A stretch of 64,000 nt of DNA. It comes from Clostridia bacterium. GTDB lineage: Bacteria > Bacillota > Clostridia > Christensenellales > UBA1242. Positions 28,117-64,000 of this stretch are shown piece by piece. Location: contig CAADYP010000018.1 of assembly GCA_900753315.1 (NCBI GenBank), positions 43,497 through 107,496 on the forward strand. Reading direction: 5' to 3'. Position 1 is the first letter of the stretch. Every line of letters starts with the position of its first letter. A model generated the notes under the pieces. The model was not told where the DNA came from. It did not search any database and worked only from the letters and a program-made list of their open reading frames with translations. Both the position numbers and the translations under genes were made by a program.

Positions 28117-28196
28117 CAATAAATTGAAAATTTATTTAATATAATTTTAGATTATTTTCAGTTTGCCTTAACAAAATTTGAGTAATTGGAGTTTGT

Positions 28197-34100: not shown

Positions 34101-37100
34101 GATGCAGTTGGCGAAGATAATGGAATCTTTGCAAGTTTGACGGCAAACAAGAGTGGGGTTACTGCAGCGCTTTCAAATATCAAATTGACAGGAAAGAATA
34201 ACAGACCTTACACATACAAAAAAGCAACAGCAGGCACTTACAGTGCTTCTACTCAATATTATGTTTTGAGCTCAGGACAATATATTGCTGTTGAAACATC
34301 AAATGCAGACGATTTAGAAAATTATTATGTTGTAGATTTGCATCTTTCAGATTTGTTTAAGTTTGAAAATGGAAAAGTAGAATTTGCACATCTCACTGAA
34401 AATGTAACTTTCAATTTTACAGCAACAATCAATAGTGAATATTCATTTGATTTCACATTGGAAGTTAAGGATTCATTTAATGTAAACACACTCCGTAGAT
34501 ATATGGATACAAACATTAGATATGGAGCAGTTAAATTTGATGTAAAGTTGGATGTTATCCAGACTAGTCTTGCAGATTTGATGCCAAAAATAGAAGGTGG
34601 AAAAACTGAGTATGTTTTTGAAGATGGAACAACAGAAAAAACAATAACACCAGAAGAAGTAAATGATGCAACTATTTGCAATCAAAAGAGCACAATTTTG
34701 TGCAAGTTTGACGGAAAGACAATGTTTAGTTTTGAAGTGGAATATAGATACACAACAAGACCAAATGTTAAGATTTCTACAAATTATCCTGCACCAGACG
34801 GAAAGAATGTGCTTGACAAAGAATATCTTTCTGCAAAAGGTGGGTCTGGCGAATTTAAGACAGCCACAATTTCAGATTTCTTTGGAAGCAAAGCATTGTT
34901 TGGTCTTGGCAACAGAATTACCGTTGAAAATTTGGCAAAAGATGAGAATGGTAATGTCAACATTGATCAAAATTGGACAATCACGGTTTCATCAATTACA
35001 AACGCAAAAGTAAATGTAAATGGAAAGATTATTTTAAGTGATTCTGCAGACAAGCTTGTTGGCACAGCAACAAATGCGGCTCCAAATGTCAATTTGACAT
35101 TCTCTATGATAGACTCTTCAAGAGATGCAACAGTAACATTTGATGTTATTATCAACAAAGTCACAGTAAATTACACTATTGTAATTGTGGCTACAGATGT
35201 CATCCAAGTTTCTACAAATGCACCAAACTATCTTAATAATAGAGAAGTAATTTATGCAGAAGACTTGACAAAACAAAATGATAAGAATTTGTTTAAACAA
35301 AATAGAATTGTAAACTACACTCTCAAATCATCAGTTACTGTAGGAACAGAATATTATTTGAGATATACAAACACTTCAGGAGAAGTAAAAGTTGTTTCTA
35401 TCACAGCAAAAAATGTTGGAGAGACAACAAACATTGATGTTGGCGAAAGCATGACAGGATATACTTATAAGGCTACATATACAAGCAAAATCGCCGCAGA
35501 AAGCGGACTTGAATCTAGTGTAATATCTGATGAAACGATCTATGAAGTTTTTCCAACTCTTACAAGCAGAATTGTGATAAAATATTATGACGGCTCTACT
35601 GTCGCATTTGGAGAAAATGTAACATTGAGTTTGAGAAAAGAAAAAAAAGAAGCCTCTATAAATGCAGATGAAGTTGCTTTAAGTGGAGAAGATTTCCAAA
35701 ATGAAGCGAAATACGAAATTAAAGTAAAAATGGGAACGGAAGAGATTTCCACATCAAGTCAATACATATTGTATTTGGATATTGAATTTGCAGTTGATGG
35801 CAATGCCGATTCTGCTGAAGGGTATACAACCGTTGAAATAAATGCAGGAACGGAACTTCCATTGTTGTCATATACTTCGTTTGGAATCAAGAATGCAAGA
35901 ACTGGACTTTTATATAATCAAGATAGTATGTACGCATCGGGCGGTTCGCTTAGTCTTTCAATTTTGGGATTTAGCGATACGGCAATTAAAGATGATTCCC
36001 AAGCAAAGAAAATACATGACAATCTCACTAGAAAAGCTGGAAAAGATTTGACAAAAGAAATTGTTTATTCGACTGGGTTGATTCCAAGAGCAGGTGTTTC
36101 TGAACTTAATAGTGCTGGCTCAAATGAAGATTTGACCAAAAACTATATCACATTGTCGGGTATCTTGAAAAATGGAAAGACAGTAGATTACAACATCAAC
36201 GCACAAGGTGCAAACAATGATGGTAACCATGTTATGATGAGAGTAACTTATACAGTTAATGTAGGTTTGGGAAATCCTATTACTTCTACACATAACATTT
36301 TGTTTAAGGTTTTGCCAAATTCAACAATGAGATTTAAGAGCCAAAATGAAGATTCTCAAATCTTCAATAATGCATCAACTGAAATTGTTAATGGGCAGAC
36401 AGTTGCAAGCAACTATGTCGCACCATATGACATTGTTTATGCAGCTGGCGATGGTTTCGCAAAAGTAAATTTCTGGACAACAAAACCAACAGATACTGGG
36501 AAAGCAACATCAGTGATTGTTGCAAATATGTATGGAAAAACGGCAAATAGTGCTAATAAGTTTACATATTCATATAACCCAGATTTGGGTAAGCAAGGAT
36601 ATAATGAGAAAGATTTGCTCAATAAGTCTGATGAGTCTGATCTATGGGGTGCTAATGGTTGGAGTAAGGAAGATTCAGTTTATAAGAGCAAACCTTTGGA
36701 TAGTAGTTTAAAAAATGTTGGGGTAACGATTTCTCCAATCACTCTTGGAACAACAGGATATATTTTTGAACTTGAGAATGATTTCGGTTACAAAGCAAAA
36801 TTTTATATCAAGATTTCTGCAAATGAAAATCCAACAATTTATTCTGCACCACAAACATTGAAAGAAGAAGACAAAATTGCAGTTGGACTTAGATATCAAA
36901 CTGTTACACCAGCCAAAGATGCAAGTGGGGACTACCAACTTTACCAAAATATCATATATAGAAAGAAAGTCGATTTAAATGAATATGCCAATGTTTTAAA
37001 AATCACTGGCAAAGACAACATTGACACAATGATTATGGAAGCAACACTTACAAAAAATGTAGGAGAATTGACTGCTGGTAGCAAAATTTACAAAACATTT

Positions 37101-40100
37101 ACTAAGGCAGATAAAGTAAATATCGTAGATGGCACTGCTGACAATAATTGGAGACAAGGAATCGATTCAACGAAAGTTGTTTCAATTACATCTGAAAACT
37201 TGGAAGGGGCATCATGTGTAATCTATGTAAAAGCAATTAAAAGTGAAGGCGGTTTGAATTCATACACAATTGAATATGTTGATGCAGGAGAAAAAAATGA
37301 TAATGGAACATACAACAATGAAACAATTGATCAAGTCCATACACCTTCTAGTGATTATAAAGATCCATTGTTTGGAACAGAATCTGGAGAAACAGAACCA
37401 AAGGGTATAATTTTGACTGGTATAACAGCATATGGATATGAAAACACATATGGCGGAATTGATTTGAGTTCTATTATGACTTCAAGAGTTCACTCAATCT
37501 TTGTAAAAAATATTGAATTCTATTATGGCGAACAAAAGATTGGAACATGCAGTTCAAAGAGCACGGCAAACAAATACTTAATAACAAACAAAGGGTATTC
37601 ATTCTCAACAGATGGAACAAGTTTGGAAACAGGAAAGCCTTACACTTATGATAAAATGGGCTTTACAGTTCCAGTTATTGATGACAGTTATTTGTATGGA
37701 AATGGAAATGCTTTGTCTCAAGTAAAGATGGTTATTACTTTGACCGACGCAGAAAATAATATATGTCAGGTAACATCTTATGTTGCATTGGAAAGACAAC
37801 AAGATCTTAGCAACATCTTTTCAAGTGAAATTGTTTATGATGGCTCTTCACCAGTTTCTAGCGATTCGGAGAACGTTTATAATGACACATTGGAAGTTGA
37901 GTTGAAATCTGGAGAAAGTGTTTCTCTTGTAGTAAACAATAATGATATAACAAGTGTTGACATTGATACAAGAAGCTTGGTAGACAGCACTGGAACAACT
38001 AAAATTGCAAACATTATTACTTTGACAAACAATAAGACTTATACTGTGAAAGAATATGTGGGCATTTCAACAAGCATTGTTGGGCTTACAAAAAATCTTG
38101 ATACAACTTCAAATTTCTATATAATGGTTGTTTCAAAGTCAGGAACGCCTGGACTCTTCTATAATGGCAAAACAATTGCTGTTGACACAAATGGAAAAGC
38201 TTCTGCAACAATTGAGAAGTATAGTACAAAATCTTTAATAATGAACATTGAAAATGTTGCAGAACTTAACAATCAAAATTACAAAGCTGAAACATTGTAT
38301 TTCTTGTATAATGGTAAGAAAGTATATCAAACAGTAAAAACTTTCAATGTTTATCCAATTTATTACAAAGCGGCAACAAATGAAAATGTTACAGATGATC
38401 AAGAAACTATAAAGGTAAACAAATATCTTAAAGTTTCAAATGGAACAAACTCTTATTATGTAATGCAACTTTCAGATTGGGCAAAAGGAATCAATCTTTA
38501 CAATAAAAATTCAGTGCCTCAATCTTTAAGTGGTATTGGAGGTCAATATTATACATTGCATTACGAAATTAACACTAGTGCAGGTGGCTCTGGTTCGGCA
38601 TTTATTGATGAGACTGGACTTATAACAACAACAGAAGATTTTAATTTTGTGTCTCATACAATCACTGTCAATGTTTATTGCAAGGTGTCTGGATATGATG
38701 GAAACTTTGAAGACATAAACACAAGATTGAAACTTGGATCATTTAGACTTTATCTTAATACTTCAATAACGCTAACAGGTTCGATAACTGGTGGACAGGC
38801 AGTAAAAATTGACAACAGCGTTGTGGTTATTCCTGCCGGATATACTCTTTGGGGAACAACATCTTCAGATACAATTTCAGATAGCATTACTTTGTCAAAC
38901 ACTGCATTTTCAATTGAAGTTGGACAAGAAATTGATTTTGCAGCATTGTTTGGTTTGGATTTGCCAAATGTCAATTATCATTTGGTATCATATGAAAAGT
39001 CAGGAACCAAAACATATACAAACTTCAACAATGTCAACTCTTGGACATTTAATGAAACTGGAGAATACACGCTTGAAATAGTCGTTGTTTCAAGGGAAAA
39101 GGTTTCCAGAATAGACGGTGTTAAAATTTTGGTATACAACACATCTGTTACCGAATCACAAAGTTCTTCAGGAAATATAGGCGATACAATTGGTTTTGAT
39201 ACTACTGAAACATGGTATGATATTTCTGATGGGAAATATGAAGAAGTTACAGGCTTCAAAAGTGCTGAAAAAGGTATTTATACTAAACAATATATAGTAA
39301 TAAACAATGAAACGAAGGTTTCAAAACTTGTAAACAAAACTTTCTATATTTATACTAAAACTAAAGAGGTCACAGTGGCATTAAACTCTAAAGCCACATT
39401 CCAACTTTCTTCTTTGGTTGAATTGAAAGAAAATGAAAGAGTCGATATTTATAAAATCATAGATACAAAAACAATAACAAAGAGAACCTCTGAATCTTTT
39501 GCCTATGCAGAAAATACTTATATTGGTGCAAATTACATTGCTGTAATAAAAGAGCAAGGCAAGGTCGATATTAAAAATATTGTTTTGTATAATGTAACTT
39601 ACAAATTTACTTCTTCTACATTAAACAAATTGGGTGTTTCTATTGCTGCTGGGGCTAAGCCAGAAACTGCAGAAAACACAATTAAAGAAGCAATTAAAAA
39701 AGACAAAGGAATTGATTCTAGTGTTTCAGTAAGTTTGATGAATGACTATGGTGTCACAAGTGCTTTTGCTTATGATGATAAAGGCGAAAGTCTTGTTGCT
39801 CAAAAATATTTTGTTGAATATACTGACAAAAATGGAAGCACAAAATTTGCAAAATATGAAATCACATTCTTTGTTTATCAAAGTGAAATTAAAATTTCAC
39901 AAACTGTAAGTGCTGGTGCTACGTTCATTCTTTCTACTTCTTTGAATGAGAAAGTAAAGAAGAGTACTGGGAATGCTGATTTTACGGGGACCATCTCTTA
40001 TTACACAATTAGTGGAGCATCATTGCAAAATATTGAAGAGATGACAATTACCAAAAGCGAAACAAGAGAATGTTATGCTCTGGTAAATGGGAAATATTAT

Positions 40101-40130
40101 AAAATCACATTGAGATTTACAGTAGAATAA
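28197..40130 (+). CDS. Giant (3,977 aa) N-terminally anchored or secreted surface protein, beta-rich, with at least some Big_2-like Ig segments; putative adhesin
   Basis: A single uninterrupted 11.9-kb ORF with an RBS TGGAG. N-terminal signal/anchor MKKRGVLSLWKVIVLVFASLIGVAGASVFGVYL. Big_2-like segments occur early (VSSINVGVKGIETTGEILEVVVGTTFELETAFTPSAS). Composition is Asn/Thr/Ser/Val/Tyr-rich. There is no LPXTG motif and no C-terminal TM helix. Confidence 0.85.
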   Translation: MKKRGVLSLWKVIVLVFASLIGVAGASVFGVYLSGGFNEKHVDPQDMSFDTNLSEGEGYYNTNLGQYEVASDFKLVIRTTTEGVTEKKVTLSLKNTKVSEGGYVSDGIIRVPQIVSLNTPFSVTLEKGQVESFDEWVKGGTSVLTAKSSNILLTAQTAKIAVDVPVSSINVGVKGIETTGEILEVVVGTTFELETAFTPSASRYLFSDSSRDKNVYFANSSAYIHYDWTNRNFVADRRSGNATDTITVYTFANSYYQKTILESITAQFSGNPTDEEFSSAVTSYLSNHPEVCISKTVALKVLDIDVASVEVGNSGNIFSMYLDQYHTVTAASVNGDNTLNVSIKDSKNNSLNALMGNVGIKISKGIPQLAIYGGQVVKVVKTDDGVTITKENFGNLADYYNAPEGIDYYVLPNSSPKEFRDYFWRFAASAKIDNVSLKVNFFYEDEDGNLKKFFETDSAEKEIVILAEEHDYEEDPAWTRNDAISMTINFDGNGNAIPSHRDLADDLNPINKDNIYKTVRYFLFIDQDDENYADINVTDVFTCKAGIEYTALTDIQGAVQKNGYILYELNGSVLTAVQSFAGKVKVIAMTIKTDADNKPYIENGRYQIVKVSRAKEIKVESTLSIVNFDPKISFGDGVRPNAQFDNDYYISAINRNADGSQKTMITFELTLSQSKDTNTDKAKVIAAFNSGNLTIVCLDKTGKETNAYVTLQGLVDKGVDAGKITFQGTLAIEENYFAAGRNSLDKGVFVRLQLKYNDGKDVHKKIVTVKNDEEKDYFYIYYQQPIKVEFEYTKDAALLDKDDDKIIDPINVNITATSGIKIGWGNKDIADVNALNDMFAYKLTDQYNNQIDANSSIYSIRLEETLEEGYTESIIGLDSTMTKIKTFISTQGQTRTSYLTIYVVDKDGNRVNIFDENGNVTQQQMKSDTITFNIASEGVSKLEYATKDVVIKGEGNQEEYANSSTLSQATVRKYVTTDDEIDIASLLKVYTKNAGDEDTLVEDVVYKFDNDFISGLSAANKKDIMKMFNVLTADDGGNWLGANTEESEYKSIEAFKNKSIKRMKILSPFKEDTQVVFSVRDKNETLFDISLVLILKSDITISQSFNLYYEANKDYLVQEANAIGVFAGESYNLDEYVKLNSYKGSNAAGDSTYTWKKGIGAVSLEASETGVFNANPSNICSLSNEAEGIILNIANIYNFTIVRITLYYGFNSFYACNITFTLYVNPNILVKVNGTKETPYINLEKMINGSVGENISDKYNIYRLTNYIKNGTLDAFVLDEISYVNNSTDKYVKIGEDGKFYYETGTNSINFTLGQTFNQVFKIRAKSGDTSQDIDAVLLFDNGQGKKITLCDAKSHLSINFSVGYGELGLEEELASTVFADTVNVKTLIYNGETNLLLKQSTSDIYKMRDGFTINKAEGSAVYYSNNKILCTRNITGFMSVGNLVNVERTLLDSVGTNLKIIISLNAIVTKVGEKFVYYNNGETPEDETGMIFNAFGNVDFAKLTSSNYADLQDENIYQVLEAGKEYKIVHNSVEPLTDLKNSFGFYYDSNLSGIKDETASYRLSIVEDATGYVTGLATLAKGKDGDSLNTVLKISHLENSYQDAYIVLRFELYEFTGTVGNLTWYYRIKVNPSFTVGKVSYPYSENGEYLNEYSSYYDSATGNYVIDFSENFTAQNSNNLTGKRFADVEWKNTENPATTLAHYAVKSATINGEEITDFASYFNFNTYENEGDYEKVSIKLVDANAKITVILERTLYVDGIKMIGSAMQYRLMFNQGANYIHSLKADSTTLTAKNNVYDVSIKASATETVLTPSIMISSNGTESKVEDFNAYISGTTEELSSSLKFMGYVKKGAKLYSDEGTTEVETLDVDLIIGTWLEAQYSDNYVEVTKDANVYYVSKEDIAYTYAYLDDSKKLHVRAKDKITQDKTFEIGFYTDERVVFKVNLTVTSYFEYRLNDSISFMGGKQYDAVGEDNGIFASLTANKSGVTAALSNIKLTGKNNRPYTYKKATAGTYSASTQYYVLSSGQYIAVETSNADDLENYYVVDLHLSDLFKFENGKVEFAHLTENVTFNFTATINSEYSFDFTLEVKDSFNVNTLRRYMDTNIRYGAVKFDVKLDVIQTSLADLMPKIEGGKTEYVFEDGTTEKTITPEEVNDATICNQKSTILCKFDGKTMFSFEVEYRYTTRPNVKISTNYPAPDGKNVLDKEYLSAKGGSGEFKTATISDFFGSKALFGLGNRITVENLAKDENGNVNIDQNWTITVSSITNAKVNVNGKIILSDSADKLVGTATNAAPNVNLTFSMIDSSRDATVTFDVIINKVTVNYTIVIVATDVIQVSTNAPNYLNNREVIYAEDLTKQNDKNLFKQNRIVNYTLKSSVTVGTEYYLRYTNTSGEVKVVSITAKNVGETTNIDVGESMTGYTYKATYTSKIAAESGLESSVISDETIYEVFPTLTSRIVIKYYDGSTVAFGENVTLSLRKEKKEASINADEVALSGEDFQNEAKYEIKVKMGTEEISTSSQYILYLDIEFAVDGNADSAEGYTTVEINAGTELPLLSYTSFGIKNARTGLLYNQDSMYASGGSLSLSILGFSDTAIKDDSQAKKIHDNLTRKAGKDLTKEIVYSTGLIPRAGVSELNSAGSNEDLTKNYITLSGILKNGKTVDYNINAQGANNDGNHVMMRVTYTVNVGLGNPITSTHNILFKVLPNSTMRFKSQNEDSQIFNNASTEIVNGQTVASNYVAPYDIVYAAGDGFAKVNFWTTKPTDTGKATSVIVANMYGKTANSANKFTYSYNPDLGKQGYNEKDLLNKSDESDLWGANGWSKEDSVYKSKPLDSSLKNVGVTISPITLGTTGYIFELENDFGYKAKFYIKISANENPTIYSAPQTLKEEDKIAVGLRYQTVTPAKDASGDYQLYQNIIYRKKVDLNEYANVLKITGKDNIDTMIMEATLTKNVGELTAGSKIYKTFTKADKVNIVDGTADNNWRQGIDSTKVVSITSENLEGASCVIYVKAIKSEGGLNSYTIEYVDAGEKNDNGTYNNETIDQVHTPSSDYKDPLFGTESGETEPKGIILTGITAYGYENTYGGIDLSSIMTSRVHSIFVKNIEFYYGEQKIGTCSSKSTANKYLITNKGYSFSTDGTSLETGKPYTYDKMGFTVPVIDDSYLYGNGNALSQVKMVITLTDAENNICQVTSYVALERQQDLSNIFSSEIVYDGSSPVSSDSENVYNDTLEVELKSGESVSLVVNNNDITSVDIDTRSLVDSTGTTKIANIITLTNNKTYTVKEYVGISTSIVGLTKNLDTTSNFYIMVVSKSGTPGLFYNGKTIAVDTNGKASATIEKYSTKSLIMNIENVAELNNQNYKAETLYFLYNGKKVYQTVKTFNVYPIYYKAATNENVTDDQETIKVNKYLKVSNGTNSYYVMQLSDWAKGINLYNKNSVPQSLSGIGGQYYTLHYEINTSAGGSGSAFIDETGLITTTEDFNFVSHTITVNVYCKVSGYDGNFEDINTRLKLGSFRLYLNTSITLTGSITGGQAVKIDNSVVVIPAGYTLWGTTSSDTISDSITLSNTAFSIEVGQEIDFAALFGLDLPNVNYHLVSYEKSGTKTYTNFNNVNSWTFNETGEYTLEIVVVSREKVSRIDGVKILVYNTSVTESQSSSGNIGDTIGFDTTETWYDISDGKYEEVTGFKSAEKGIYTKQYIVINNETKVSKLVNKTFYIYTKTKEVTVALNSKATFQLSSLVELKENERVDIYKIIDTKTITKRTSESFAYAENTYIGANYIAVIKEQGKVDIKNIVLYNVTYKFTSSTLNKLGVSIAAGAKPETAENTIKEAIKKDKGIDSSVSVSLMNDYGVTSAFAYDDKGESLVAQKYFVEYTDKNGSTKFAKYEITFFVYQSEIKISQTVSAGATFILSTSLNEKVKKSTGNADFTGTISYYTISGASLQNIEEMTITKSETRECYALVNGKYYKITLRFTVE

Positions 40131-53370: not shown

Positions 53371-53447
53371 TGGTGGAGATAGACGGATTCGAACCGTCGA
53401 CCCCCTGCTTGCAAGGCAGGTGCTCTAGCCAACTGAGCCATACCCCC
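53371..53447 (-). tRNA. tRNA-Ala (anticodon UGC), CCA encoded
   Basis: Reverse strand GGGGGTATGGCTCAGTTGGCTAGAGCACCTGCCTTGCAAGCAGGGGGTCGACGGTTCGAATCCGTCTATCTCCACCA. It has the G3:U70 Ala identity pair and the anticodon loop CTTGCAA. Confidence 0.92.
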
Positions 53448-56138: not shown

Positions 56139-56168
56139 TTGACTTTTAAATTTTGTTTTTGATATAAT
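56139..56168 (+). promoter_or_regulatory. Candidate sigma-A promoter of the SPFH/ESCRT-III/Vps4-like operon
   Basis: TTGACT (56139-56144), 18-bp spacer, TG-extended TATAAT (56163-56168), ~45 nt upstream of the GTG start at 56211. Confidence 0.55.
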
Positions 56169-56210: not shown

Positions 56211-57050
56211 GTGGAACAAAATTTTATCACTTTTACTGGAGATAACAACCAATTATTCTCAAAATATGCTGTTGAAAATTTGAATCCAAAACTGACACTT
56301 ATTGTGCCAGAAACTCACAATGCGATTTTGATTAAAGACGGTCAAATGCTTCAAACTCTTTCGTCTGGGAGATATCTTATCAGTCAATTTGTTGATTTGA
56401 AAACCGAACTCGACTCGTCTATTGAAGTGCTTTTTATGTCAAAGACAGCGAAACTTAAGCTTCTTTGGGGAACTGCTTCAAAATTTTTGATGTATGACAA
56501 TTTGTTGCAAGAAAACTATCGTGTTGGCATGAGTGGTGATTTTGAAGTGCAGATTGGAGACCCAAGAAAGTGTTATCTTTATCTTGTCGGTGCGGCACAA
56601 GACTTGACGGCCGATGGGTTGCAAGAAAGACTCATGTCAAATGTTGTGTCTGTTCTTGAAGGTGTCGTTGTGGAGTATATAAACGAAAACAATGTTTTGT
56701 TCAATCAAATTGCATTGTGCAAAAAAGAAATTTCCACAAAAGCTCTTGGCAAATTAAGCCAAAAGATGATGAATGAATATGGTATTGCTGTTTTTTCTTT
56801 CAATATTGCAAACATTATTATTGAAAGCGAAGATTACAAAAAATTGGTAGATGCTTATAAGCAAATCAAAAAGACTGAAAGTTTTGTTTGCAGACATTGT
56901 GGAGCGGTTTTAAAAGAAAATGACAAATTCTGCTCAACATGTGGAAAGCCTGTTGAAATGGCGAAAAAGTGCCCAAAATGTTTTGCAGAAAATGCAGAAG
57001 ATGCAAAGTTCTGCTCTTCTTGCGGTTACAGATTGGTTAAGGAGGGGTAA
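56211..57050 (+). CDS. SPFH/Band-7-like domain protein with a C-terminal double zinc ribbon (B. subtilis YdjI-like architecture)
   Basis: 279 aa with a GTG start. The N-terminal ~220 aa follow the pattern of the SPFH (Band_7_1) family (LIVPETHNAILIKDGQMLQTLSSGRYLI ... YRVGMSGDFEVQIGDPRK ...). The C-terminus has two CxxC-x10-12-CxxC ribbons (CRHCGAVLKENDKFCSTCG; CPKCFAENAEDAKFCSSCG). Confidence 0.7.
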   Translation: MEQNFITFTGDNNQLFSKYAVENLNPKLTLIVPETHNAILIKDGQMLQTLSSGRYLISQFVDLKTELDSSIEVLFMSKTAKLKLLWGTASKFLMYDNLLQENYRVGMSGDFEVQIGDPRKCYLYLVGAAQDLTADGLQERLMSNVVSVLEGVVVEYINENNVLFNQIALCKKEISTKALGKLSQKMMNEYGIAVFSFNIANIIIESEDYKKLVDAYKQIKKTESFVCRHCGAVLKENDKFCSTCGKPVEMAKKCPKCFAENAEDAKFCSSCGYRLVKEG

Positions 57051-57051
57051 A

Positions 57052-57456
57052 ATGATAGCTTTATACATCATTATTCTGCTTGCAATAATTGGTTTTGCAG
57101 TGTTTTACATTTGCAAGGAATACATAAAAAAGCCTGACGCTCAAGAAGGTGGAAGCAGAGGAGTTTTGAAAAATAAAAAATCCATTGAAAATATGGTTGC
57201 AAATGTTGAGAGTATTTTGGTTTATGCAAATGGAAACGATGCTCTTTGTCGCAGACTTGTGGAAGTGAAAGACAACATTAGATTTTTCAATCCTACAACA
57301 AATCAAAAAGTGCTTTTGGTGGACACAAAAATTGCAAACAAACTTGATGATTTGAAAATTTTGGTTGCAAAAGACAACACACAAGAAACATGTTTCAGAG
57401 TTTTGGAAGAAGTGGAAGCTTATATCGTCCAAAGAAAAAAAGATGAGAGGGATTGA
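57052..57456 (+). CDS. Single-pass membrane protein (134 aa), unknown function
   Basis: ATG at 57052, 1 nt after the upstream stop, with RBS AAGGAGGGG. N-terminal TM helix MIALYIIILLAIIGFAVFYI followed by a ~105-aa soluble domain. Confidence 0.55.
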   Translation: MIALYIIILLAIIGFAVFYICKEYIKKPDAQEGGSRGVLKNKKSIENMVANVESILVYANGNDALCRRLVEVKDNIRFFNPTTNQKVLLVDTKIANKLDDLKILVAKDNTQETCFRVLEEVEAYIVQRKKDERD

Positions 57457-57815
57457 TGAAAAGAACTTACCAAACATCAAAAAACTTGCCAGAAAGCGAA
57501 GTTGTCAAAGTTTTGAAAGAACTTAAATTGGGATATCTAAACTTAAGTGATGGCATGTTTGAACAAGCAAAAATGAATTTTCTGCTTGCATTGCAATTTG
57601 ATAGCAAATGTTCCGATGCTTATTGGGGACTAATGCTTGTGAAATTTCAAATTACAAACGAAGATGAATTGTTTGCAAATCCAGTGACTTACAAGAGTGC
57701 AATTTATTTGCCAGAATGTGAAAATGCACTGCAGTTTGCAGATGAGACACAAAAGAAAATTTATGATGGACTTTTGGAGAGAATATACAAAATAAACGAA
57801 GGGGACAATTATTAA
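57456..57815 (+). CDS. Small TPR-like protein (119 aa)
   Basis: The ATG overlaps the upstream TGA (TGATG). The motif FEQAKMNFLLALQFDSKCSDAYWGLMLVKFQITNEDELF recurs three times in the large protein at 60236. Confidence 0.5.
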   Translation: MKRTYQTSKNLPESEVVKVLKELKLGYLNLSDGMFEQAKMNFLLALQFDSKCSDAYWGLMLVKFQITNEDELFANPVTYKSAIYLPECENALQFADETQKKIYDGLLERIYKINEGDNY

Positions 57816-57842: not shown

Positions 57843-58454
57843 ATGTGGTGGCCATTTAAAAGAAACAAATTCAAAAATTTAAACAGAGAAGATTTGGTAA
57901 ATTCTATCTGTGAACTTGAAAGACAAGAACGCACAGTGGAAGCGGAAGTTTATCAAAAAATCAAAGAGATAGATGCTTTGATGGAAAAAGGCAAACATGA
58001 AAAAAACAAAGAACTTCAACTTTTTTATGCGAAAAAGATAAGTCATTTAAACGAAGAAAAACAAGTTTGCATGGAAAGAGGAATGTATTTGCTCTACAAC
58101 ATTAGACTTATGAACAAACTTAAAGATGCGTATGACAGCAACACTTTCTTTAAGACTCAAACAAAAGTGCCTTTGAGTGAATTGTTGCAAGACCAGAAAA
58201 GATTGGCAAAGTTTTTGAACAAAGCACTTGAAACTCGAATTGCATCAGAAGATGTGCTTACAAGTGCGGACGAATTGTTTACGGAAGTTCAATCAGCATA
58301 TGATGTCAGCCAACCAATTTACGGCATTGGCAAAAACGAAGAAGAAATTTTGACAATGTTTGAAAAAGAAAATCAGTTGAACGACGAACAAGAACTTCTG
58401 GAAGAAAAGCAATCACAACCAAGCAAAAAGAAAAAAATGAAGATGGAGGAATAA
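57843..58454 (+). CDS. ESCRT-III/Snf7-superfamily-like coiled-coil protein, divergent paralog 1
   Basis: 203 aa with RBS AAGGAGAAAG. It has an aromatic/basic N-terminus (MWWPFKRNKFK), a long predicted helical hairpin (REDLVNSICELERQERTVEAEVYQKIKEIDALMEKGK / ELQLFYAKKISHLNEEKQVCMERGMYLLYNIRLMNKLKDA) and an acidic C-terminal region ending in a basic patch. Confidence 0.5.
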   Translation: MWWPFKRNKFKNLNREDLVNSICELERQERTVEAEVYQKIKEIDALMEKGKHEKNKELQLFYAKKISHLNEEKQVCMERGMYLLYNIRLMNKLKDAYDSNTFFKTQTKVPLSELLQDQKRLAKFLNKALETRIASEDVLTSADELFTEVQSAYDVSQPIYGIGKNEEEILTMFEKENQLNDEQELLEEKQSQPSKKKKMKMEE

Positions 58455-58457
58455 AAA

Positions 58458-59057
58458 ATGGCATGGTTTAAATCAAAACAACAAAAAGAAATTGAAAAGA
58501 AGATGTTGATAAAAAGAACAATCAACACAATGAACAAACAAATCAATCGTTTGGAAGACCAAAAGCAAGTGTTTATTGATGCTGCAAAGAGAGCAAAACT
58601 CAAAGGACTTGATGCACAATTCAATTTGGCGCTTTCTGGTTACAAGATGACAGTTCAACAACAAAAGCGTGCACAAGAAATGCTTTTAAACTTTGAAATC
58701 ACCGCACAAATGAAAGATGTGACAATGATGACAGGTGAGTTTTTGCGTGGGATGAGTGACATTTCAAAAGAAATGACAAAACTTGCAGATGCAAAAGAAT
58801 TTGCTAAAATTCAATCTCAATTTGAACAAGCAATGGCAGCCGTAGAAACACAAACTGACCAAATGGACAACTTTATGGAAATGAGTCAAGAAACATTCTA
58901 TGCCGCTGGGAAAGACAAAAGTGGCAAGCAAATGAGCGACGAAGAACTTGAAAAGTTTATTATGGAACAAGCGTCACAAGACGAACTTTCAAGTGAGAAC
59001 ATTGATAAAGAAATGGAAGAAGTAAGAAAAAAAATCGAATCTGAAACAAAAGAATAA
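58458..59057 (+). CDS. ESCRT-III (Snf7/CHMP family)-like protein, paralog 2 (closest by eye to the CHMP1/CHMP2-Vps2 type)
   Basis: 199 aa with RBS GGAGGAATA. By-eye alignment to eukaryotic CHMPs: KQINRLEDQKQVFIDAAKRAKLKGLDAQFNLALSGYKMTVQQQKRAQEM parallels ..RELDRERQKLETQEKKIIADIKKMAKQGQMDAVRIMAKDLVRTRRYVRKF. EFAKIQSQFEQAMAAVETQTDQMDNFM parallels CHMP1B KISALMDKFEHQFETLDVQTQQMEDTM. It has an acidic C-terminus with a terminal amphipathic helix. Confidence 0.72.
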   Translation: MAWFKSKQQKEIEKKMLIKRTINTMNKQINRLEDQKQVFIDAAKRAKLKGLDAQFNLALSGYKMTVQQQKRAQEMLLNFEITAQMKDVTMMTGEFLRGMSDISKEMTKLADAKEFAKIQSQFEQAMAAVETQTDQMDNFMEMSQETFYAAGKDKSGKQMSDEELEKFIMEQASQDELSSENIDKEMEEVRKKIESETKE

Positions 59058-59078: not shown

Positions 59079-60227
59079 ATGGAACAAAACATAAATGTCT
59101 TGTCAGACACCTTCAATCTTTATATGAAAAAAGGGAAGGAAGCAAAAGCGAAAGGCAATATTACTCTAGCAAAGAGGAATTTTTTGCTCGCCAGTGAGAC
59201 AATGATGCAAATGGCAAAACTCAGTCAAGGCAAGCTTAAAGAAGTCCGCATGGACAGAGCAAGAGGACTTGTTGAGATAGCAGAAAATTTGAATAAACGG
59301 CCTGAAAAAGTCACAAAGAAAAACGATGGTGACAATGCAAAAAATGAAGAAGATGAAGATGTCAAAAAATGGCAGACAGCAAAAGTTCCAAATATAAAAT
59401 TTAGTGATGTTGCAGGACTTGAAGATGTCAAAAAAGCAATCACCATAAGAATGATAAATCCAATCAAATATCCTGACAAATACAAAATGTATGGCAAAAA
59501 GACTGGCGGTGGGGTGCTTTTATATGGACCTCCAGGAACAGGAAAAACTATGATTGCAAAAGCGATTGCAAATGAAGTTGGAGCAAAATTCTATGCAGTC
59601 AAAGGATCTGACATTGTCAGCAAATGGGTGGGTGATAGCGAGAAAAACATCAATTCTTTGTTTGAAGAAGCAAACAAGCAGGATAGAGCAATCATATTTA
59701 TTGACGAAATGGACAGCCTTATTGGAAAGCGTGGGGTTGACACTCACAACGACAAGAGGGTAAACGAATTCTTGCAACAAATTGACGGCTTTGCTGGAAG
59801 AAATCCAAACTTATTGCTCCTTGGTGCAACAAACAGACCATGGGATATCGACAGTGCAGCAATGCGTTCGGGCAGATTTTCACAAAAAATTTATTTGCCC
59901 TTGCCAGATGCACCTGCAAGAAAATTTATGATAGAAAAAAATATGAAAGGTGTGCCAGTTGCACCTGATTTTGATATAGACAAAATTGTGGCAGAAACTG
60001 AGATGTATAGTGGTGCTGACCTTGACGAACTTTGTGACAGAGCAAAGGACGAGCCGTTGCTTAAAGCGATTGCTACGGACAGCATTATTTTGGTTACAAA
60101 TCAAGACTTTGACAATGTCTTGGAGAAAATGCCACCAAGTGTTACGAAAAGTGAATTGAAACTGTTTGATGATTACAATCAAGAAATCAACAGTTATGCA
60201 AAGAAACCTAAAACAGAGAAAAAGTAG
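59079..60227 (+). CDS. Vps4-like AAA+ ATPase (meiotic clade) with an N-terminal MIT-like domain
   Basis: 382 aa. The N-terminal three-helix region KGKEAKAKGNITLAKRNFLLASETMMQMAKLSQGKLKEVRMDRARGLVEIAENL resembles the MIT domain. Walker A GPPGTGKT. Pore loop SKWVGDSEK (Vps4 SKW[LM]GESEK). Walker B IIFIDEMD. LLLGATNRPWDIDSAAMRSGRFSQKIYLPLPD compares with Vps4 [29 protein letters not shown]. C-terminal helix PSVTKSELKLFDDYNQEI compares with spastin SVSPQTLEAYIRWNKDFG. Confidence 0.82.
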   Translation: MEQNINVLSDTFNLYMKKGKEAKAKGNITLAKRNFLLASETMMQMAKLSQGKLKEVRMDRARGLVEIAENLNKRPEKVTKKNDGDNAKNEEDEDVKKWQTAKVPNIKFSDVAGLEDVKKAITIRMINPIKYPDKYKMYGKKTGGGVLLYGPPGTGKTMIAKAIANEVGAKFYAVKGSDIVSKWVGDSEKNINSLFEEANKQDRAIIFIDEMDSLIGKRGVDTHNDKRVNEFLQQIDGFAGRNPNLLLLGATNRPWDIDSAAMRSGRFSQKIYLPLPDAPARKFMIEKNMKGVPVAPDFDIDKIVAETEMYSGADLDELCDRAKDEPLLKAIATDSIILVTNQDFDNVLEKMPPSVTKSELKLFDDYNQEINSYAKKPKTEKK

Positions 60228-60235
60228 GATAATTG

Positions 60236-63200
60236 ATGAGAGAGCGTGTTTGCAAAAATTGTGGAGGAAGATCATATAAAGTTGTTGGGCAAAACATGGT
60301 TAGATGCCAGTTCTGCGGGACTCTTTATGTGGACGAACAGGCTTCAAAGGAAGAAGAAGTGCTCTTGGTTGGTGCAAATGAAATATTGAGAGAACTCAAA
60401 TTTGCTGAAGCTGTTGAAGAGTTTGACAAAATCCTCTCTTTGTATCCAAAATCATTTGAAGCTTTTTGGGGAAAGGCTCTTGCAAAAAACAAAATAGTTT
60501 ATTATACAAACAAAAGGGGTTCGACAAAGAAACCTTACTTTTTTGGTGAGGAAATACCTTCAATTGTTGAAGACGAAGACTTTAAATCAGCAGTAAAAAA
60601 TGCTCCACCAGAAGTTGAAAAATCCTATAACGACAAAGCAAGAAGAATTGAAAAATTGCACAAACTTTATCTTGAAAATTCAGTAAACAAAAACTATGAT
60701 GTGTTTCTTTATGCCGTAAACTTTGACAAAAATGCCCCAGACAAAACACCAGAAATTCAAGAGACAGTGAGAGGACTTGAAGAAAAGGGCTTGAAAGTGT
60801 ATTTTTCTCAGAGTTTGTCGCAAAGAGAAAAAGAAGAGGATACATTTAGAGCACTTCAAACAAGCAAAGCATTTGTCCTTTTTGCAAACGGGAAAACTGG
60901 ATATTTTGATGGCGATTGCAAAAATTTGTATGATAGATATTTGTATTTTGCATCTCAAAAACAAAAAACAAAGTCAAGCATGATTGTTGCGCTTGACACA
61001 AACAAAGTTTCTGTTGATGATTTGCCAAAAGAATTGGTCGCTTGCAAAAGTGTTGTTGACATGAGCACAACCTCATTTTTGCAAGATATTGATTTGAAAG
61101 TTGAAAAAGAAATGCAAAATACAATCAATGAGATGGCAAAAATTGAAACCATCAAAATTGAAAAAGTCGAACCACAAAAGAAAGAATATGTTGATGTCGA
61201 AACAATCAATCCAAACGAACTTGGACACTATCATGTTGACAATATCGAATTGAGCGAAACAAACAAAATTAAATGGATTTTCTTAACTCTTAAGCATGGT
61301 GATTTTGTTTCTGCACAAGAAATGATTGCTGACGAACTTGAAAAAGACCCAAATAATGCAGAGTTGTTGTTTGCTAACCTTATGTCTTCAATGAAAATTA
61401 ATACACAAGAAGAATTTTTTTCTAATATCTCAAATTTCAAAGACAGAGAGAAAATTGACCAAATTTTAAAATTCGCCGCAAAAGATTTTGCAGAGTATTT
61501 TGTAGACAGCTGGGAAAAGCTTGTTGAAAGTTTGGATAGCGAAGAATATTATAATGCGTTTTTGCTTTATCTAGCAAAATTTAGTTCGCCAAATCGTGAG
61601 CATTTTGTTGAGAAGGCAGAAGACAAGGCGGTTGAAACTTTAAACTCCGAACTTATTGAAAAGGTTTTAAAATGTTTTAACAGCAACGAAGTAGAGAGAT
61701 TTGTTAATTTCTATTTTATGTTGGCACAAAAAAGTGACGACCAAGAATATTACAAAAAAATTCTTGATATTGATGCTGGGCATGAACAAAGCAATTTAGC
61801 AATTCTGCTTCAACATTTCAAGACAGATGAAGACAAATTGCATTATCGAAACAAAGAAGAGATAGAGGACGTTTTCAAATATTTGAGCGAAGATACGAGA
61901 GCACAATTTGTGTTTGCGGTTACAAACATGATTTTGCCGGTTGCATTTTTGGATTTGAAGCAGGCCGAAGAACAGTTGGATTTCTACCTGTCATACATCT
62001 CTGATGACAAAAAACTTGTTAGTATCTTGGAAAAGATTGCTCAAACTTTTCAGTCTTATGGTTTTTTCAAACAAGCAGAAAAATATATTTCAATAGCAAT
62101 TTCAAAAGATGCCGAAAATGGCAGTCTTTATTGGAATCTTATTCAAATCAAATTGCATTGCAAAACGGACAATGAACTCATTATGTCAAATGTAAAGATT
62201 ACACAATTTCCAGAGTGGGAAACATTGTTGTCACTTTCCGATGAAAAAGAAACAGAAAAATATGCCGAAATTGTCAGCAAAGTCAACCTTTATAAGGGTG
62301 AAAAATTGCCACTGAAAGAAGAAACTTTGGATAAGGTTTGTTTGAAAGAAAAGTTGCAAAACTTTATCAACAGAAACAACTCTATTTTGCTTGAAATGGA
62401 AAAACAAGAAGGGCAACTTGTTTATCGCGGTGCAGAGTATTATAAATTGCAACTCAAACCTTTTGAGATTTATCTTGAAAAGCTTGATAAAATTTCAACT
62501 TTTGAAGAATATCAAAATTTGTTTTCAAAATTGTGTCAGAGATTGGACGCAATGGATTTGACTTTGGATTCTTCAATCAATGTAACACATTTGATTGACA
62601 AAGAAGATGGGCTTAAAGTAGTATTCCCGCCAAAAACAGAGAAACAAGAAAAAGTTAAAGAGCCAAAAGACATTACAAAAGACAAATTCTTGAAGAGATT
62701 TTTGTTTATCTTTTTGGAATTGTTCCCTATTTGCTTTGCAATGCTTTTGCTTTTGGTTTCTGTTTTTGCACCAAAAGAAGTTTATATGTATTTCAGTCAA
62801 GACAGCATTGTGGGGTTGGTAATTTTCTCAACTGCTGTCGGGCTGATAAATCTTACAGTGTTTATTAACGCAAAACAAAAACATTCAAAAGGTTGGAATG
62901 TTTGCAAAATTGTTTTGTTTGTGGTGGCAGTAATAAATTTGGTTTTGCTCTTTGTAAGTTTTTATATTGAGCCAAATACAATAAAAATTAAAAACGAGCA
63001 CGAACTTTCAGTTTTGCTTAAAAATGCAAACTATTCAAACATGGTTTTGGATAGAGACATGGATATGACTGGAAAAACTTGGAGCTCCGCTAATTTCAGT
63101 GGAACACTTGATGGACAAGGTCACAAAATTTCAAACATAAAATTGAAAGCGAAAAAAGGCACTGCATTCTTTGGATATAATGGTGGAACGATAAAAAATA

Positions 63201-64000
63201 TTGAGTTTGATTTTGTGGATTCGACTTACAAAAACATTTCCACATTTGCGGGAATTGCTGTGGAGAACAAAGGCGAAATCAAAGACTGCATAATTTCAGG
63301 GACAGTAAAACTTGTCGTAAACAGCAATGCGGTAGTTGGTGGAGTTGTTGGATATGATGACGGTGGACAAATTGTTGGTTGTCAAATTCAACTCACTATT
63401 GAAGTTGAATCAACGGGCAAAGAGTTGACAGTTGGTGGAGTTGCTGGAAAGGTTAGACTTGGCAAAAAAGGTGCAGATTTGAGAAAGAATGTTGTTTCAA
63501 ATTCAATGATCATTTCAACAAATTCAGAACAATTTACATTTGGTGGACTTGCTGGAATTGTCGAACACATTGACGGAGATAAATATAACTTATCACAAAA
63601 CACAGTGGGGACAACCTTGACTGCAACTGGCACAATTTCTGATAAATATTGGGTAGGCGGACTCGTAGGAGTTGGCTACAATCCAAGCAAAAACAATCTT
63701 ACTTTAGGCAAACTTGACGCCTCTGCACTTTCTGGAAGTGGTTACATGGGTGGTCTTTATGGAAAATATCAAAACCCAACACTTGCCGAACCGATTGAGA
63801 CAAGTTATGCAAATATTGACTTGGTTGCTCAAACAGATGAATGTGATGTTGGAGGGTTTGTAGGACATTTTGGTGGAACAATAAATGCCTGCTTCACAAA
63901 TTATGCTGAAAAATCTTATGGTTATGGAGCAAAAATGTTTGACAGTGCAAGAGAAAATAATTGTGTGATTTCATCTTCAAAAACATACGATTCAAAACTT
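60236..64000 (+). CDS. Large multidomain membrane protein, 3'-truncated by the window edge (>1,255 aa): N-terminal zinc ribbon, TPR-like repeats, TIR-like domain, 3 TM helices, extracellular GLUG-motif repeat domain
   Basis: Absent from the ORF track because no stop occurs before the window end. The frame from the ATG at 60236 is open for exactly 1,255 codons. Zinc ribbon CKNCGG..x..CQFCG (60251-60316). TIR-like region ~60689-61090 (NYDVFLYAVNFD..GLKVYFSQ..SKAFVLFANG..SMIVALDTNKVSVDDLPKEL). TM helices ~62690-62970. GLUG-type repeats from ~63300 (VVGGVVGY, LTVGGVAGKV, FTFGGLAGIV, YWVGGLVGVG, GYMGGLYGK, DVGGFVGHFGG). Confidence 0.75.
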   Translation, partial: MRERVCKNCGGRSYKVVGQNMVRCQFCGTLYVDEQASKEEEVLLVGANEILRELKFAEAVEEFDKILSLYPKSFEAFWGKALAKNKIVYYTNKRGSTKKPYFFGEEIPSIVEDEDFKSAVKNAPPEVEKSYNDKARRIEKLHKLYLENSVNKNYDVFLYAVNFDKNAPDKTPEIQETVRGLEEKGLKVYFSQSLSQREKEEDTFRALQTSKAFVLFANGKTGYFDGDCKNLYDRYLYFASQKQKTKSSMIVALDTNKVSVDDLPKELVACKSVVDMSTTSFLQDIDLKVEKEMQNTINEMAKIETIKIEKVEPQKKEYVDVETINPNELGHYHVDNIELSETNKIKWIFLTLKHGDFVSAQEMIADELEKDPNNAELLFANLMSSMKINTQEEFFSNISNFKDREKIDQILKFAAKDFAEYFVDSWEKLVESLDSEEYYNAFLLYLAKFSSPNREHFVEKAEDKAVETLNSELIEKVLKCFNSNEVERFVNFYFMLAQKSDDQEYYKKILDIDAGHEQSNLAILLQHFKTDEDKLHYRNKEEIEDVFKYLSEDTRAQFVFAVTNMILPVAFLDLKQAEEQLDFYLSYISDDKKLVSILEKIAQTFQSYGFFKQAEKYISIAISKDAENGSLYWNLIQIKLHCKTDNELIMSNVKITQFPEWETLLSLSDEKETEKYAEIVSKVNLYKGEKLPLKEETLDKVCLKEKLQNFINRNNSILLEMEKQEGQLVYRGAEYYKLQLKPFEIYLEKLDKISTFEEYQNLFSKLCQRLDAMDLTLDSSINVTHLIDKEDGLKVVFPPKTEKQEKVKEPKDITKDKFLKRFLFIFLELFPICFAMLLLLVSVFAPKEVYMYFSQDSIVGLVIFSTAVGLINLTVFINAKQKHSKGWNVCKIVLFVVAVINLVLLFVSFYIEPNTIKIKNEHELSVLLKNANYSNMVLDRDMDMTGKTWSSANFSGTLDGQGHKISNIKLKAKKGTAFFGYNGGTIKNIEFDFVDSTYKNISTFAGIAVENKGEIKDCIISGTVKLVVNSNAVVGGVVGYDDGGQIVGCQIQLTIEVESTGKELTVGGVAGKVRLGKKGADLRKNVVSNSMIISTNSEQFTFGGLAGIVEHIDGDKYNLSQNTVGTTLTATGTISDKYWVGGLVGVGYNPSKNNLTLGKLDASALSGSGYMGGLYGKYQNPTLAEPIETSYANIDLVAQTDECDVGGFVGHFGGTINACFTNYAEKSYGYGAKMFDSARENNCVISSSKTYDSKL

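Follow-up and report, generated by a model that had tools for sequence, protein, structure and literature searches.

An SPFH–zinc-ribbon gene of the YdjI type heads a putative ESCRT-III/Vps4-like operon in a lineage of gut Clostridia

The DNA analyzed here, referred to as the window, is a stretch of 64,000 nucleotides (nt) from a Clostridia bacterium (GTDB lineage Bacteria; Bacillota; Clostridia; Christensenellales; UBA1242; assembly GCA_900753315.1, contig CAADYP010000018.1, positions 43,497 to 107,496 of the forward strand). Towards its 3′ end a cassette of seven plus-strand genes, g1 to g7, was identified, which is predicted to form one operon behind a near-consensus promoter. The first gene, g1, codes for a putative SPFH protein of the YdjI/SamI type, and the genes behind it include a predicted ESCRT-III protein of the Snf7 family (g5) and a Vps4/CdvC-like ATPase (g6). 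On balance we lean towards g1 being the first gene of a bacterial ESCRT-III/Vps4-like membrane-remodelling operon and acting on the polymer of this system. An earlier annotation of the window, made from its letters alone and called the original prediction in the following, had likened the head of this operon to pspA-ydjGHI of Bacillus subtilis.

The promoter-like site is of the sigma-70 type and located at positions 56139 to 56168 on the plus strand (TTGACT, an 18-nt spacer and TATAAT with an extended −10 TG). With 11 of 12 hexamer positions matching, it was the top-scoring site between 55900 and 60400. It lies approximately 43 nt 5′ of the g1 start, between g1 and an upstream short-chain dehydrogenase gene on the opposite strand. 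The intergenic spacing is tight, with one-base gaps or overlaps at the first two junctions. The gene g1 (56211 to 57050) begins with GTG and ends with TAA at 57048 to 57050. A single base separates it from the ATG of g2 (57052 to 57456), whose Shine-Dalgarno sequence AAGGAGGGG is located within the 3′ end of g1, and the g2 stop and the ATG of g3 (57456 to 57815) share one base. These are followed by g4 (57843 to 58454), g5 (58458 to 59057) and g6 (59079 to 60227), which starts 21 nt past the g5 stop. The final gene of the cassette, g7, starts at 60236 and runs past the window end at 64000, so that more than 1,254 amino acids (aa) of its product are covered. The scanned stretch contains one terminator-like site on the plus strand, a weak one within g6 (59948 to 59966); on both strands together, four such sites were observed and 2.9 are expected by chance.

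The g1 product is a predicted soluble protein of 279 aa. It matched the Pfam family Band_7_1 (PF13421) with an E-value of 2.7e-12 and 47.2 bits (cut-off 24) over residues 29 to 211. The alignment spans positions 16 to 202 of the 211 profile positions, placing the SPFH domain at approximately 56295 to 56843, and the match to Band_7 (PF01145) was slightly over its Pfam cut-off. The C-terminus carries a double zinc ribbon, matching Zn_Ribbon_1 in two stretches (8.8e-14) and DZR over residues 227 to 272 (1.9e-9). The corresponding CxxC motifs are CRHC, CSTC, CPKC and CSSC (residues 227 to 271, approximately nt 56889 to 57035). Four CxxC motifs were found within the last 75 residues in 75 of 77 g1 orthologues, the remaining two orthologues having two. 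No hydrophobic or transmembrane segment was predicted for g1. A sequence search for solved SPFH relatives gave none that was recognisable, and the plasmid search returned only an unrelated lone SPFH gene on a Butyrivibrio plasmid and generic zinc-ribbon matches.

On the basis of this domain layout, g1 is likened to YdjI and classified as an SPFH protein of the YdjI/SamI type. YdjI itself is presumably a member of PF13421, the papers on it giving just "band 7 family". It has been described as soluble, with an SPFH domain, a zinc finger at the C-terminus and no membrane anchor, and as dependent on the membrane proteins YdjG and YdjH (PMC8581546), and its layout is given as "Band-7+ZnR" (PMC8581546; PMC11237479 supplement). 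Since YdjI itself has this composition, the fusion of Band_7_1 and ribbons in g1 represents a normal YdjI-like architecture. Like YdjI, and unlike FloA and FloT, g1 has no N-terminal membrane anchor. A merger of YdjI and YdjG, in which the ribbons of g1 derive from YdjG, was also considered and was rejected because YdjI already carries a zinc ribbon.

The g2 product (134 aa) has a single N-terminal hydrophobic helix (residues 2 to 20), followed by a lysine-rich stretch and a helical C-terminal domain of approximately 100 aa that is conserved across orthologues. The transmembrane helix is present in this genome and in close relatives, and in every complete locus a g2 orthologue comes after g1. 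Neither Pfam nor NCBIfam nor PADLOC yielded a family for g2; TPM_phosphatase and zinc ribbons in particular were not found. In B. subtilis, YdjG combines zinc ribbons, an NTF2-like domain and a transmembrane segment, whereas YdjH has a TPM domain and a transmembrane segment (PMC11237479). Compared by these descriptions, g2 differs from both proteins, as none of their reported domains was found in it. Since such domains were not found and the transmembrane helix is lost in several orthologues, g2 is at best an analogue of YdjG/YdjH, and this with respect to a role as membrane partner only.

The third gene codes for a helical protein of 119 aa to which no family was assigned; a TPR-like signal is faint at most (PilW TPR, 0.0027, far under the cut-off). 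Among the loci of relatives, which are numbered from L001 onwards, g3 is confined to the closer ones (L001 to L057 and L062) and was not detected in L060 to L084. The original prediction had described an SPFH-like domain with two CxxC...CxxC ribbons at 56890 to 57040, followed after a 1-nt gap by a single-pass transmembrane protein. Both descriptions agree with the results given above, and the N-terminal domain of g1 matches the SPFH/Band_7 profiles above the Pfam cut-off. The further statement that g2 lies directly upstream of the genes that are ESCRT-III-like does not apply to the window, where g3 intervenes, but it applies to the more distant relatives without g3.

Searches of Pfam, NCBIfam, PHROGs, PADLOC and PDB with the single sequences of g5 and g4 gave nothing usable, and family profiles were needed. 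For g5 (199 aa), a scan of 1.84 billion representative proteins resulted in 322 clusters at E ≤ 1e-3, of which 97 were used for a profile (A3). The best match of A3 in PDB was human CHMP2A (7zcg_B; E 2.7e-5), aligned nearly end to end with positions 8 to 150 on 5 to 143. CHMP1B, CHMP3 and Vps24 were matched more weakly, and neither PspA nor Vipp1 was among the PDB matches of A3. The Pfam family Snf7 (PF03357) was matched individually by 25 of the 97 relatives, with a best E-value of 9.6e-7. In addition, tblastn gave a match of g5 in a Vps4 locus of Thermococcus, namely to its Snf7-like gene (8e-10, 94% of g5); with an identity of 26.5% this is the best archaeal match found. A hidden Markov model match to the Thermococcus ESCRT-III protein had an E-value of 7.7e-28. 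Because of the CHMP2A profile match, the Pfam Snf7 matches and the match to the Thermococcus locus, g5 is predicted to be an ESCRT-III protein of the Snf7 family and not of the PspA type.

The g5 protein begins with MAWFKSKQQKE, and its predicted helices (residues 7–48, 52–106, 112–149, 161–173 and 179–198) fit the ESCRT-III pattern, in which a helical hairpin (alpha1-alpha2/3) precedes alpha4, alpha5 and a C-terminal helix. They were taken from an AlphaFold2 model with a predicted local distance difference test (pLDDT) score of 56.9; the models of g5 and g4 were built from shallow alignments of 83–99% identity. The best Foldseek matches of g5 were CdvB, CHMP1B, CHMP2A, Snf7 and Asgard ESCRT-IIIB, with non-significant E-values between 0.1 and 1.3. 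At the C-terminus a conserved amphipathic helix, IDKEMEEVRKKI, was found, which is MIM-like. It occurs in the form [ILV][DE]KE[LM]xE[LVI][KR]KK[IL] in most, but not all, members of the g5 family, and we take it to resemble MIM1 at the motif level only. No g5 relatives were found in phage records or in IMG/VR viral contigs, and the single match on a plasmid is archaeal (Thermococcus peptonophilus).

The protein encoded by g4 (203 aa) is all-helical and is tentatively regarded as a divergent ESCRT-III-like paralogue of g5. Its N-terminus MWWPFKRNKFK is followed by a predicted helical hairpin (residues 15–51 and 56–98), for which the pLDDT is approximately 84. In hhalign, g4 aligned collinearly with the g5 family over 163 columns (7 to 185 against 3 to 176) with an E-value of 0.0014 and 17% probability, and with a 201-aa protein of the Thermococcus ESCRT locus with 7e-4 and 27% probability. 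A profile search of PDB gave no match for g4, BLASTP detected no similarity between g4 and g5, and Foldseek returned mixed helical bundles with CdvB2 among them. The position of g4 in the cassette favours the assignment: in the distant cassettes L086, L004 and L097 a clear Snf7-like paralogue is located directly upstream of a second Snf7-like gene.

The g6 product (382 aa) is composed of an MIT-like N-terminal domain of three helices, a single classical AAA domain (PF00004, 2e-42) and a C-terminal helix. A Pfam scan of the single g6 N-terminus gave no MIT match. A profile (A7) of the N-terminal 77 residues of 16 g6 orthologues matched the chitin-synthase MIT domain 2mpk_A with 1.7e-4 and the MIT domains of Sulfolobus Vps4 with 0.043 (2w2u) and 0.37 (2v6y). 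The identity of 2mpk as an MIT domain is confirmed in the literature (PMC8851075). In a phmmer comparison, g6 aligned with the Thermococcus Vps4 from residue 12 onwards (1.3e-45). The pore loop SKWVGDSEK and the motif NRPWDIDSA presumably resemble those of Vps4 and katanin. Strong matches to p97 were obtained in PDB, and the NCBIfam model CdvC (NF041006) was aligned over positions 8 to 368 of 370, with 205.9 bits under the equivalog cut-off of 650. The architecture predicted for g6 is therefore MIT plus single AAA, as in Vps4, but g6 is not a curated CdvC member, since its Vps4_C and CdvC scores are below the cut-offs. The PADLOC scan identified only generic AAA profiles for g6 (IetA, 1.4e-38, and TRIP13); g1 to g5 had no match, and the one match of g7 was at chance level (RmrA, 0.019). 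Longer g6 orthologues of 480–530 aa were observed in part of the lineage (L061:10581-12137, L079:10576-12171, L063:10605-12050), in which a linker rich in Pro, Glu and Lys is followed by a C-terminal domain of approximately 130 aa without a Pfam match.

In relatives g7 is approximately 1,270 aa long, with a full length of 1,206–1,282 aa in most of the loci L001 to L057 and L062. The full-length protein has an N-terminal CxxC...CxxC ribbon and approximately 820 helical, TPR-like residues, as well as three predicted transmembrane helices and, at the C-terminus, a repeat domain, which would be extracytoplasmic. The repeat region shows recurring GG[FLV]VG motifs and only a faint pectate-lyase-like Pfam signal (window 60236 to 64000; L005:11792-15613). 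In distant relatives one or two g7-related proteins of approximately 580 aa are encoded between g5 and g6 in place of g7.

The conservation of the cassette was analyzed in a species-representative scan (one genome per species) with a six-sequence g5 alignment (A5) as the query. This resulted in 80 loci from Caccovivens, Coproplasma, Christensenella, Christensenellaceae and metagenome-assembled Clostridia, and all of their open reading frames were searched with the window proteins. The order g1-g2-g3-g4-g5-g6-g7 is kept in L001 to L057 and L062. For L060 to L084, in which the g5 identity is 55–66%, the order is g1-g2-g4-g5-g6, and g5 and g6 are often separated by one or two g7-like genes. The SPFH gene heads the cassette in approximately 75 loci, and the loci without it are mostly short or truncated contigs. 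The order g1-g2-(g3)-g4-g5-g6 is thus preserved while the identity of g5 drops from 96% to 55% and that of g1 to approximately 34–44%. The median identity is 81–84% for g4, g5 and g6 (84% for g4 and g5) compared to 62% for g1. All seven cassette genes were also present in three inspected loci with g1 homologues of 59–65% identity. Downstream of g7 the gene content varies among relatives, whereas an upstream MscL gene and a bPH_2 gene are common to those examined.

The cassette resembles the pspA-ydjGHI operon (also named pspA-samGHI), in which a soluble Band-7/zinc protein, a protein of the ESCRT-III superfamily and membrane proteins are likewise encoded together. In B. subtilis, YdjI/SamI is required for the formation of PspA foci (PMC8581546; bioRxiv 10.64898/2026.02.06.704340). 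The two operons differ in their polymer partner, which is PspA in B. subtilis and of the Snf7 type in the Clostridia cassette, and in their order, the SPFH gene being the last gene of the former and the first of the latter. Furthermore, pspA-ydjGHI is written in the literature without an MIT-AAA ATPase, which is present in the Clostridia cassette. The echo of pspA-ydjGHI seen in the original prediction is consequently retained for a YdjI-type SPFH gene accompanying an ESCRT-III-superfamily gene, but it does not extend to g2, which is without the YdjG/YdjH domains. The proposed replacement of PspA by a Snf7-like polymer is supported by the CHMP2A profile match and by PspA and Vipp1 being absent from the matches of A3. 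The recurrent association with Snf7-like genes expected for g1 homologues was observed in approximately 75 species-representative genomes, and very divergent Band_7_1 proteins also occur in a second, distant cassette type.

A similar association has been described for Archaea. The Meth_adaptin ESCRT loci include an SPFH–zinc-ribbon gene, and an ancient link between SPFH proteins and ESCRT-III was proposed from them (Makarova et al., 2024, mBio, PMC10936438). The idea of such a coupling is therefore not put forward here for the first time. Compared by the published description, these loci share an SPFH–zinc-ribbon gene within an ESCRT locus with the Clostridia cassette. They differ from the bacterial cassette in being archaeal and in containing ProX and proteins of the adaptin-appendage type. 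Neither was detected by Pfam scans of g7, a weak negative, as these domains were identified with HHpred and structure models in that paper. Archaeal ESCRT loci with a kinase and a phosphatase have also been described (PMC10936438).

A full ESCRT locus was found on a 49-kb plasmid of Thermococcus peptonophilus (NZ_CP014751.1; L093, 9920-26468). Besides Vps4 and a Snf7-like protein, it encodes a Ser/Thr kinase, a PP2C phosphatase and two helical proteins of approximately 200 aa, and it matches the published archaeal loci with kinase and phosphatase. The Snf7-like protein and g5 align end to end and have the N-terminal motif M..[WF]KSK..KEIE+K in common. In contrast to the Clostridia cassette, the Thermococcus locus codes for this kinase and this phosphatase but has no SPFH gene, and its Vps4 has a clear Vps4_C match (7.7e-9) compared to the weak one of g6. 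Since this plasmid carries a full locus, an ESCRT-type system can be plasmid-borne, which bears on how such systems might spread.

For Bacteria, Ravi et al. (2024, mSystems, PMC11237479) described VPS4-like AAA+ genes acquired by transfer, which adjoin the gene of a TPR protein that has six transmembrane helices, and g7 is similarly a helical, TPR-like protein with transmembrane helices. In the same study some bacterial members of the Snf7 clade adjoin AAA+ ATPases, the VPS4-like loci are reported to have snf7 displaced, and PspA is the only context given for Band-7 (PMC11237479). The Clostridia operon differs from those loci in joining Snf7-like, MIT-AAA and SPFH–zinc-ribbon genes. A literature search found no paper describing this cassette.

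Nine distant relatives of g5 with an identity of 24–42% were inspected, which resulted in six informative cassette contexts of two groups. One cassette type (L089/L090, L091 and L092) contains a Band_7_1 protein of 253–259 aa without zinc ribbons, which is too divergent to be linked to g1 by phmmer. Its gene is accompanied by an AAA gene and by two or three Snf7-like genes, one of which codes for a fusion to an FtsK-like or RuvB-like ATPase. The gene order conserved with g1 and the recurrence of an SPFH gene in this distant type support a coupling of SPFH and ESCRT-III by gene context.

Several further observations concern relatives of g5. A g5-like Snf7 domain forms the N-terminal part of proteins of 430–800 aa (P0406, P0409, P0413, P0416, P0419 and others), with an ATPase of the FtsK/SpoIIIE type or a RuvB-like AAA+ ATPase as fusion partner. 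Such fusions are located at L089:6093-7886, L092:245-2089 and L091:8001-9668. In these proteins the place usually taken by the membrane anchor of a DNA translocase appears to be occupied by an ESCRT-III-like module, and the C-terminal domain of some RuvB-type fusions, read by eye, may be NERD-like. The cassette in L097 (7549-18238) is located directly beside genes for a 1,204-aa TIR-domain protein, a BrxL-like ATPase and an SNF2 helicase, and that in L089 (10297-18197) directly beside genes for an LRR_5 protein and an SNF2 helicase. These neighbours hint at a role of some g5 family members in conflict or defence. In L086 (9360-14856) a minimal cassette lies between plsY/der and spoIVA; it comprises an AAA gene, a gene of 426 aa and two Snf7-like genes, and could possibly be connected with membrane fission during sporulation.

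By analogy with YdjI/SamI of B. subtilis, g1 would oligomerise on the cytoplasmic side of the membrane, where it may be tethered by g2, the predicted transmembrane anchor in this genome, and/or by g7 with its three transmembrane helices. It would localise or nucleate a copolymer of g5 and probably g4. The MIT domain of g6 would bind the C-terminal MIM-like helix of g5, resulting in an ATP-driven remodelling or disassembly of the polymer. The cellular process served could possibly be membrane repair, vesicle formation or a step of division or sporulation. A more far-reaching reading, according to which the cassette is a complete, vertically inherited and archaeal-like bacterial ESCRT machine with g4 and g5 as copolymer, g6 as true Vps4-type ATPase and g1 as SPFH nucleator, present lineage-wide in small-genome gut Clostridia, falls in our judgement a little short of an even chance.

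A number of results weigh against the reading of g1 as part of such a membrane-remodelling operon. The structure models are of low confidence (pLDDT 57 for g5 and 64 for g4), and the assignment of g4 to ESCRT-III is not secure. The Vps4_C match of g6 (0.0025, 18.2 bits) is under the cut-off of 21.3, and g6 scores about equally against CDC48 (223.8 bits) and CdvC (205.9 bits). For g2 there is no detectable family, and its transmembrane helix is missing in several more distant orthologues that begin with MGLF or MGLL (L061:9050-9385, L063:9019-9372, L072:8992-9366 and L079:8965-9303). Finally, no SPFH gene was found in the distant cassettes L086, L095, L096 and L097 or on the partial contig L004. 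Because of these cases, SPFH is a recurrent accessory and not a core component of Snf7-like/AAA systems.

HflK/C cages FtsH, and stomatin pairs with NfeD. Similarly, the SPFH protein could act on the ATPase or a protease instead of the ESCRT-III polymer: g1 would cage g6 at the membrane and thereby confine or regulate it, as it would a protease in other cassettes, with the Snf7-like proteins as substrates or adaptors. The AAA core of g6, which scores equally against Cdc48, FtsH, proteasomal ATPase and CdvC models and strongly matches p97, would be compatible with this, as would the Band_7_1 gene that directly follows a trypsin-like protease gene in L091 and L092. However, g6 has no protease domain and the cassette no protease, the MIT-like domain of g6 and the MIM-like helix of g5 point to a pairing of ATPase and polymer, and the YdjI-type SPFH protein of B. 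subtilis acts on the ESCRT-III homologue PspA (PMC8581546). A cage is thus considered unlikely. A still weaker case can be made for g1 and g2 forming a separate SPFH membrane module, linked to the downstream genes by the promoter only and not by function. SPFH genes do occur in many unrelated contexts, such as alone on the Butyrivibrio plasmid, and several Snf7-like/AAA cassettes are without one, but the adjacency and order persist across the lineage even where g1 falls to the lowest identities. A second, unrelated-looking Band_7_1 protein is found inside another cassette type, and the literature gives comparable links, both of PspA with YdjI and in archaeal ESCRT loci (PMC8581546, PMC10936438). 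Given the conserved gene order, a coincidental co-transcription is very improbable.

The cassette may also be read as a conflict or anti-phage system, in which SPFH and the ESCRT-III-like proteins would sense or repair phage-inflicted membrane damage or deliberately disrupt the membrane in an abortive infection under the control of the AAA protein. This explanation draws on the TIR, BrxL-like and SNF2 neighbours in L097, the LRR_5 and SNF2 neighbours in L089, the Snf7-like fusions to FtsK-type and RuvB-like ATPases, some of the RuvB type with a possibly NERD-like extension, and the PADLOC IetA match of g6. The latter reflects generic AAA similarity, though, and no other meaningful PADLOC match was obtained for the cassette. 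The chromosomal neighbourhood with MscL and bPH_2 is shared, approximately 75 species representatives carry the cassette with a median identity of 84% for g4 and g5, and the searches of phage records, IMG/VR and plasmids returned the one archaeal plasmid match mentioned above. Because of this shared neighbourhood and the high conservation across species, the cassette is unlike typical defence islands, and we assign a low probability to a defence function. The reading of g1 as the SPFH component of a membrane-remodelling operon is hence preferred to these three explanations.

The g5 family, with approximately 320 representative clusters, and the operon place a predicted Snf7-type ESCRT-III protein beside an MIT-AAA ATPase in Bacteria. 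In a 2025 review a Vps4-like ATPase "appears absent in bacteria" (PMC7619361), and ESCRT homologues have been reported in Archaea "but not in bacteria" (PMC10936438 abstract). A complete bacterial ESCRT machine, if confirmed, would overturn the statement that Bacteria lack Vps4 and ESCRT-III. The predicted g1 protein is of the same kind as the PspA-localising SPFH–zinc-ribbon protein of B. subtilis and the SPFH protein of the Meth_adaptin loci. If the proposed function holds, the coupling of SPFH and ESCRT-III would span the PspA and Snf7 branches and both prokaryotic domains. With its seven genes the cassette is compact enough to make testable the long-standing question of how polymers of the ESCRT-III superfamily are directed to their site of assembly, and whether an SPFH scaffold is the ancient answer to it. 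It would also offer a bacterial entry point to the co-evolution of MIT and MIM and to the origin of Vps4.

Outside the cassette, two further features of the window were recorded. An open reading frame of 3,982 aa fills 12 kb of it (28182 to 40127). A tRNA-Ala(tgc) gene is located at 53371 to 53447 on the minus strand, approximately 2.8 kb upstream of g1.

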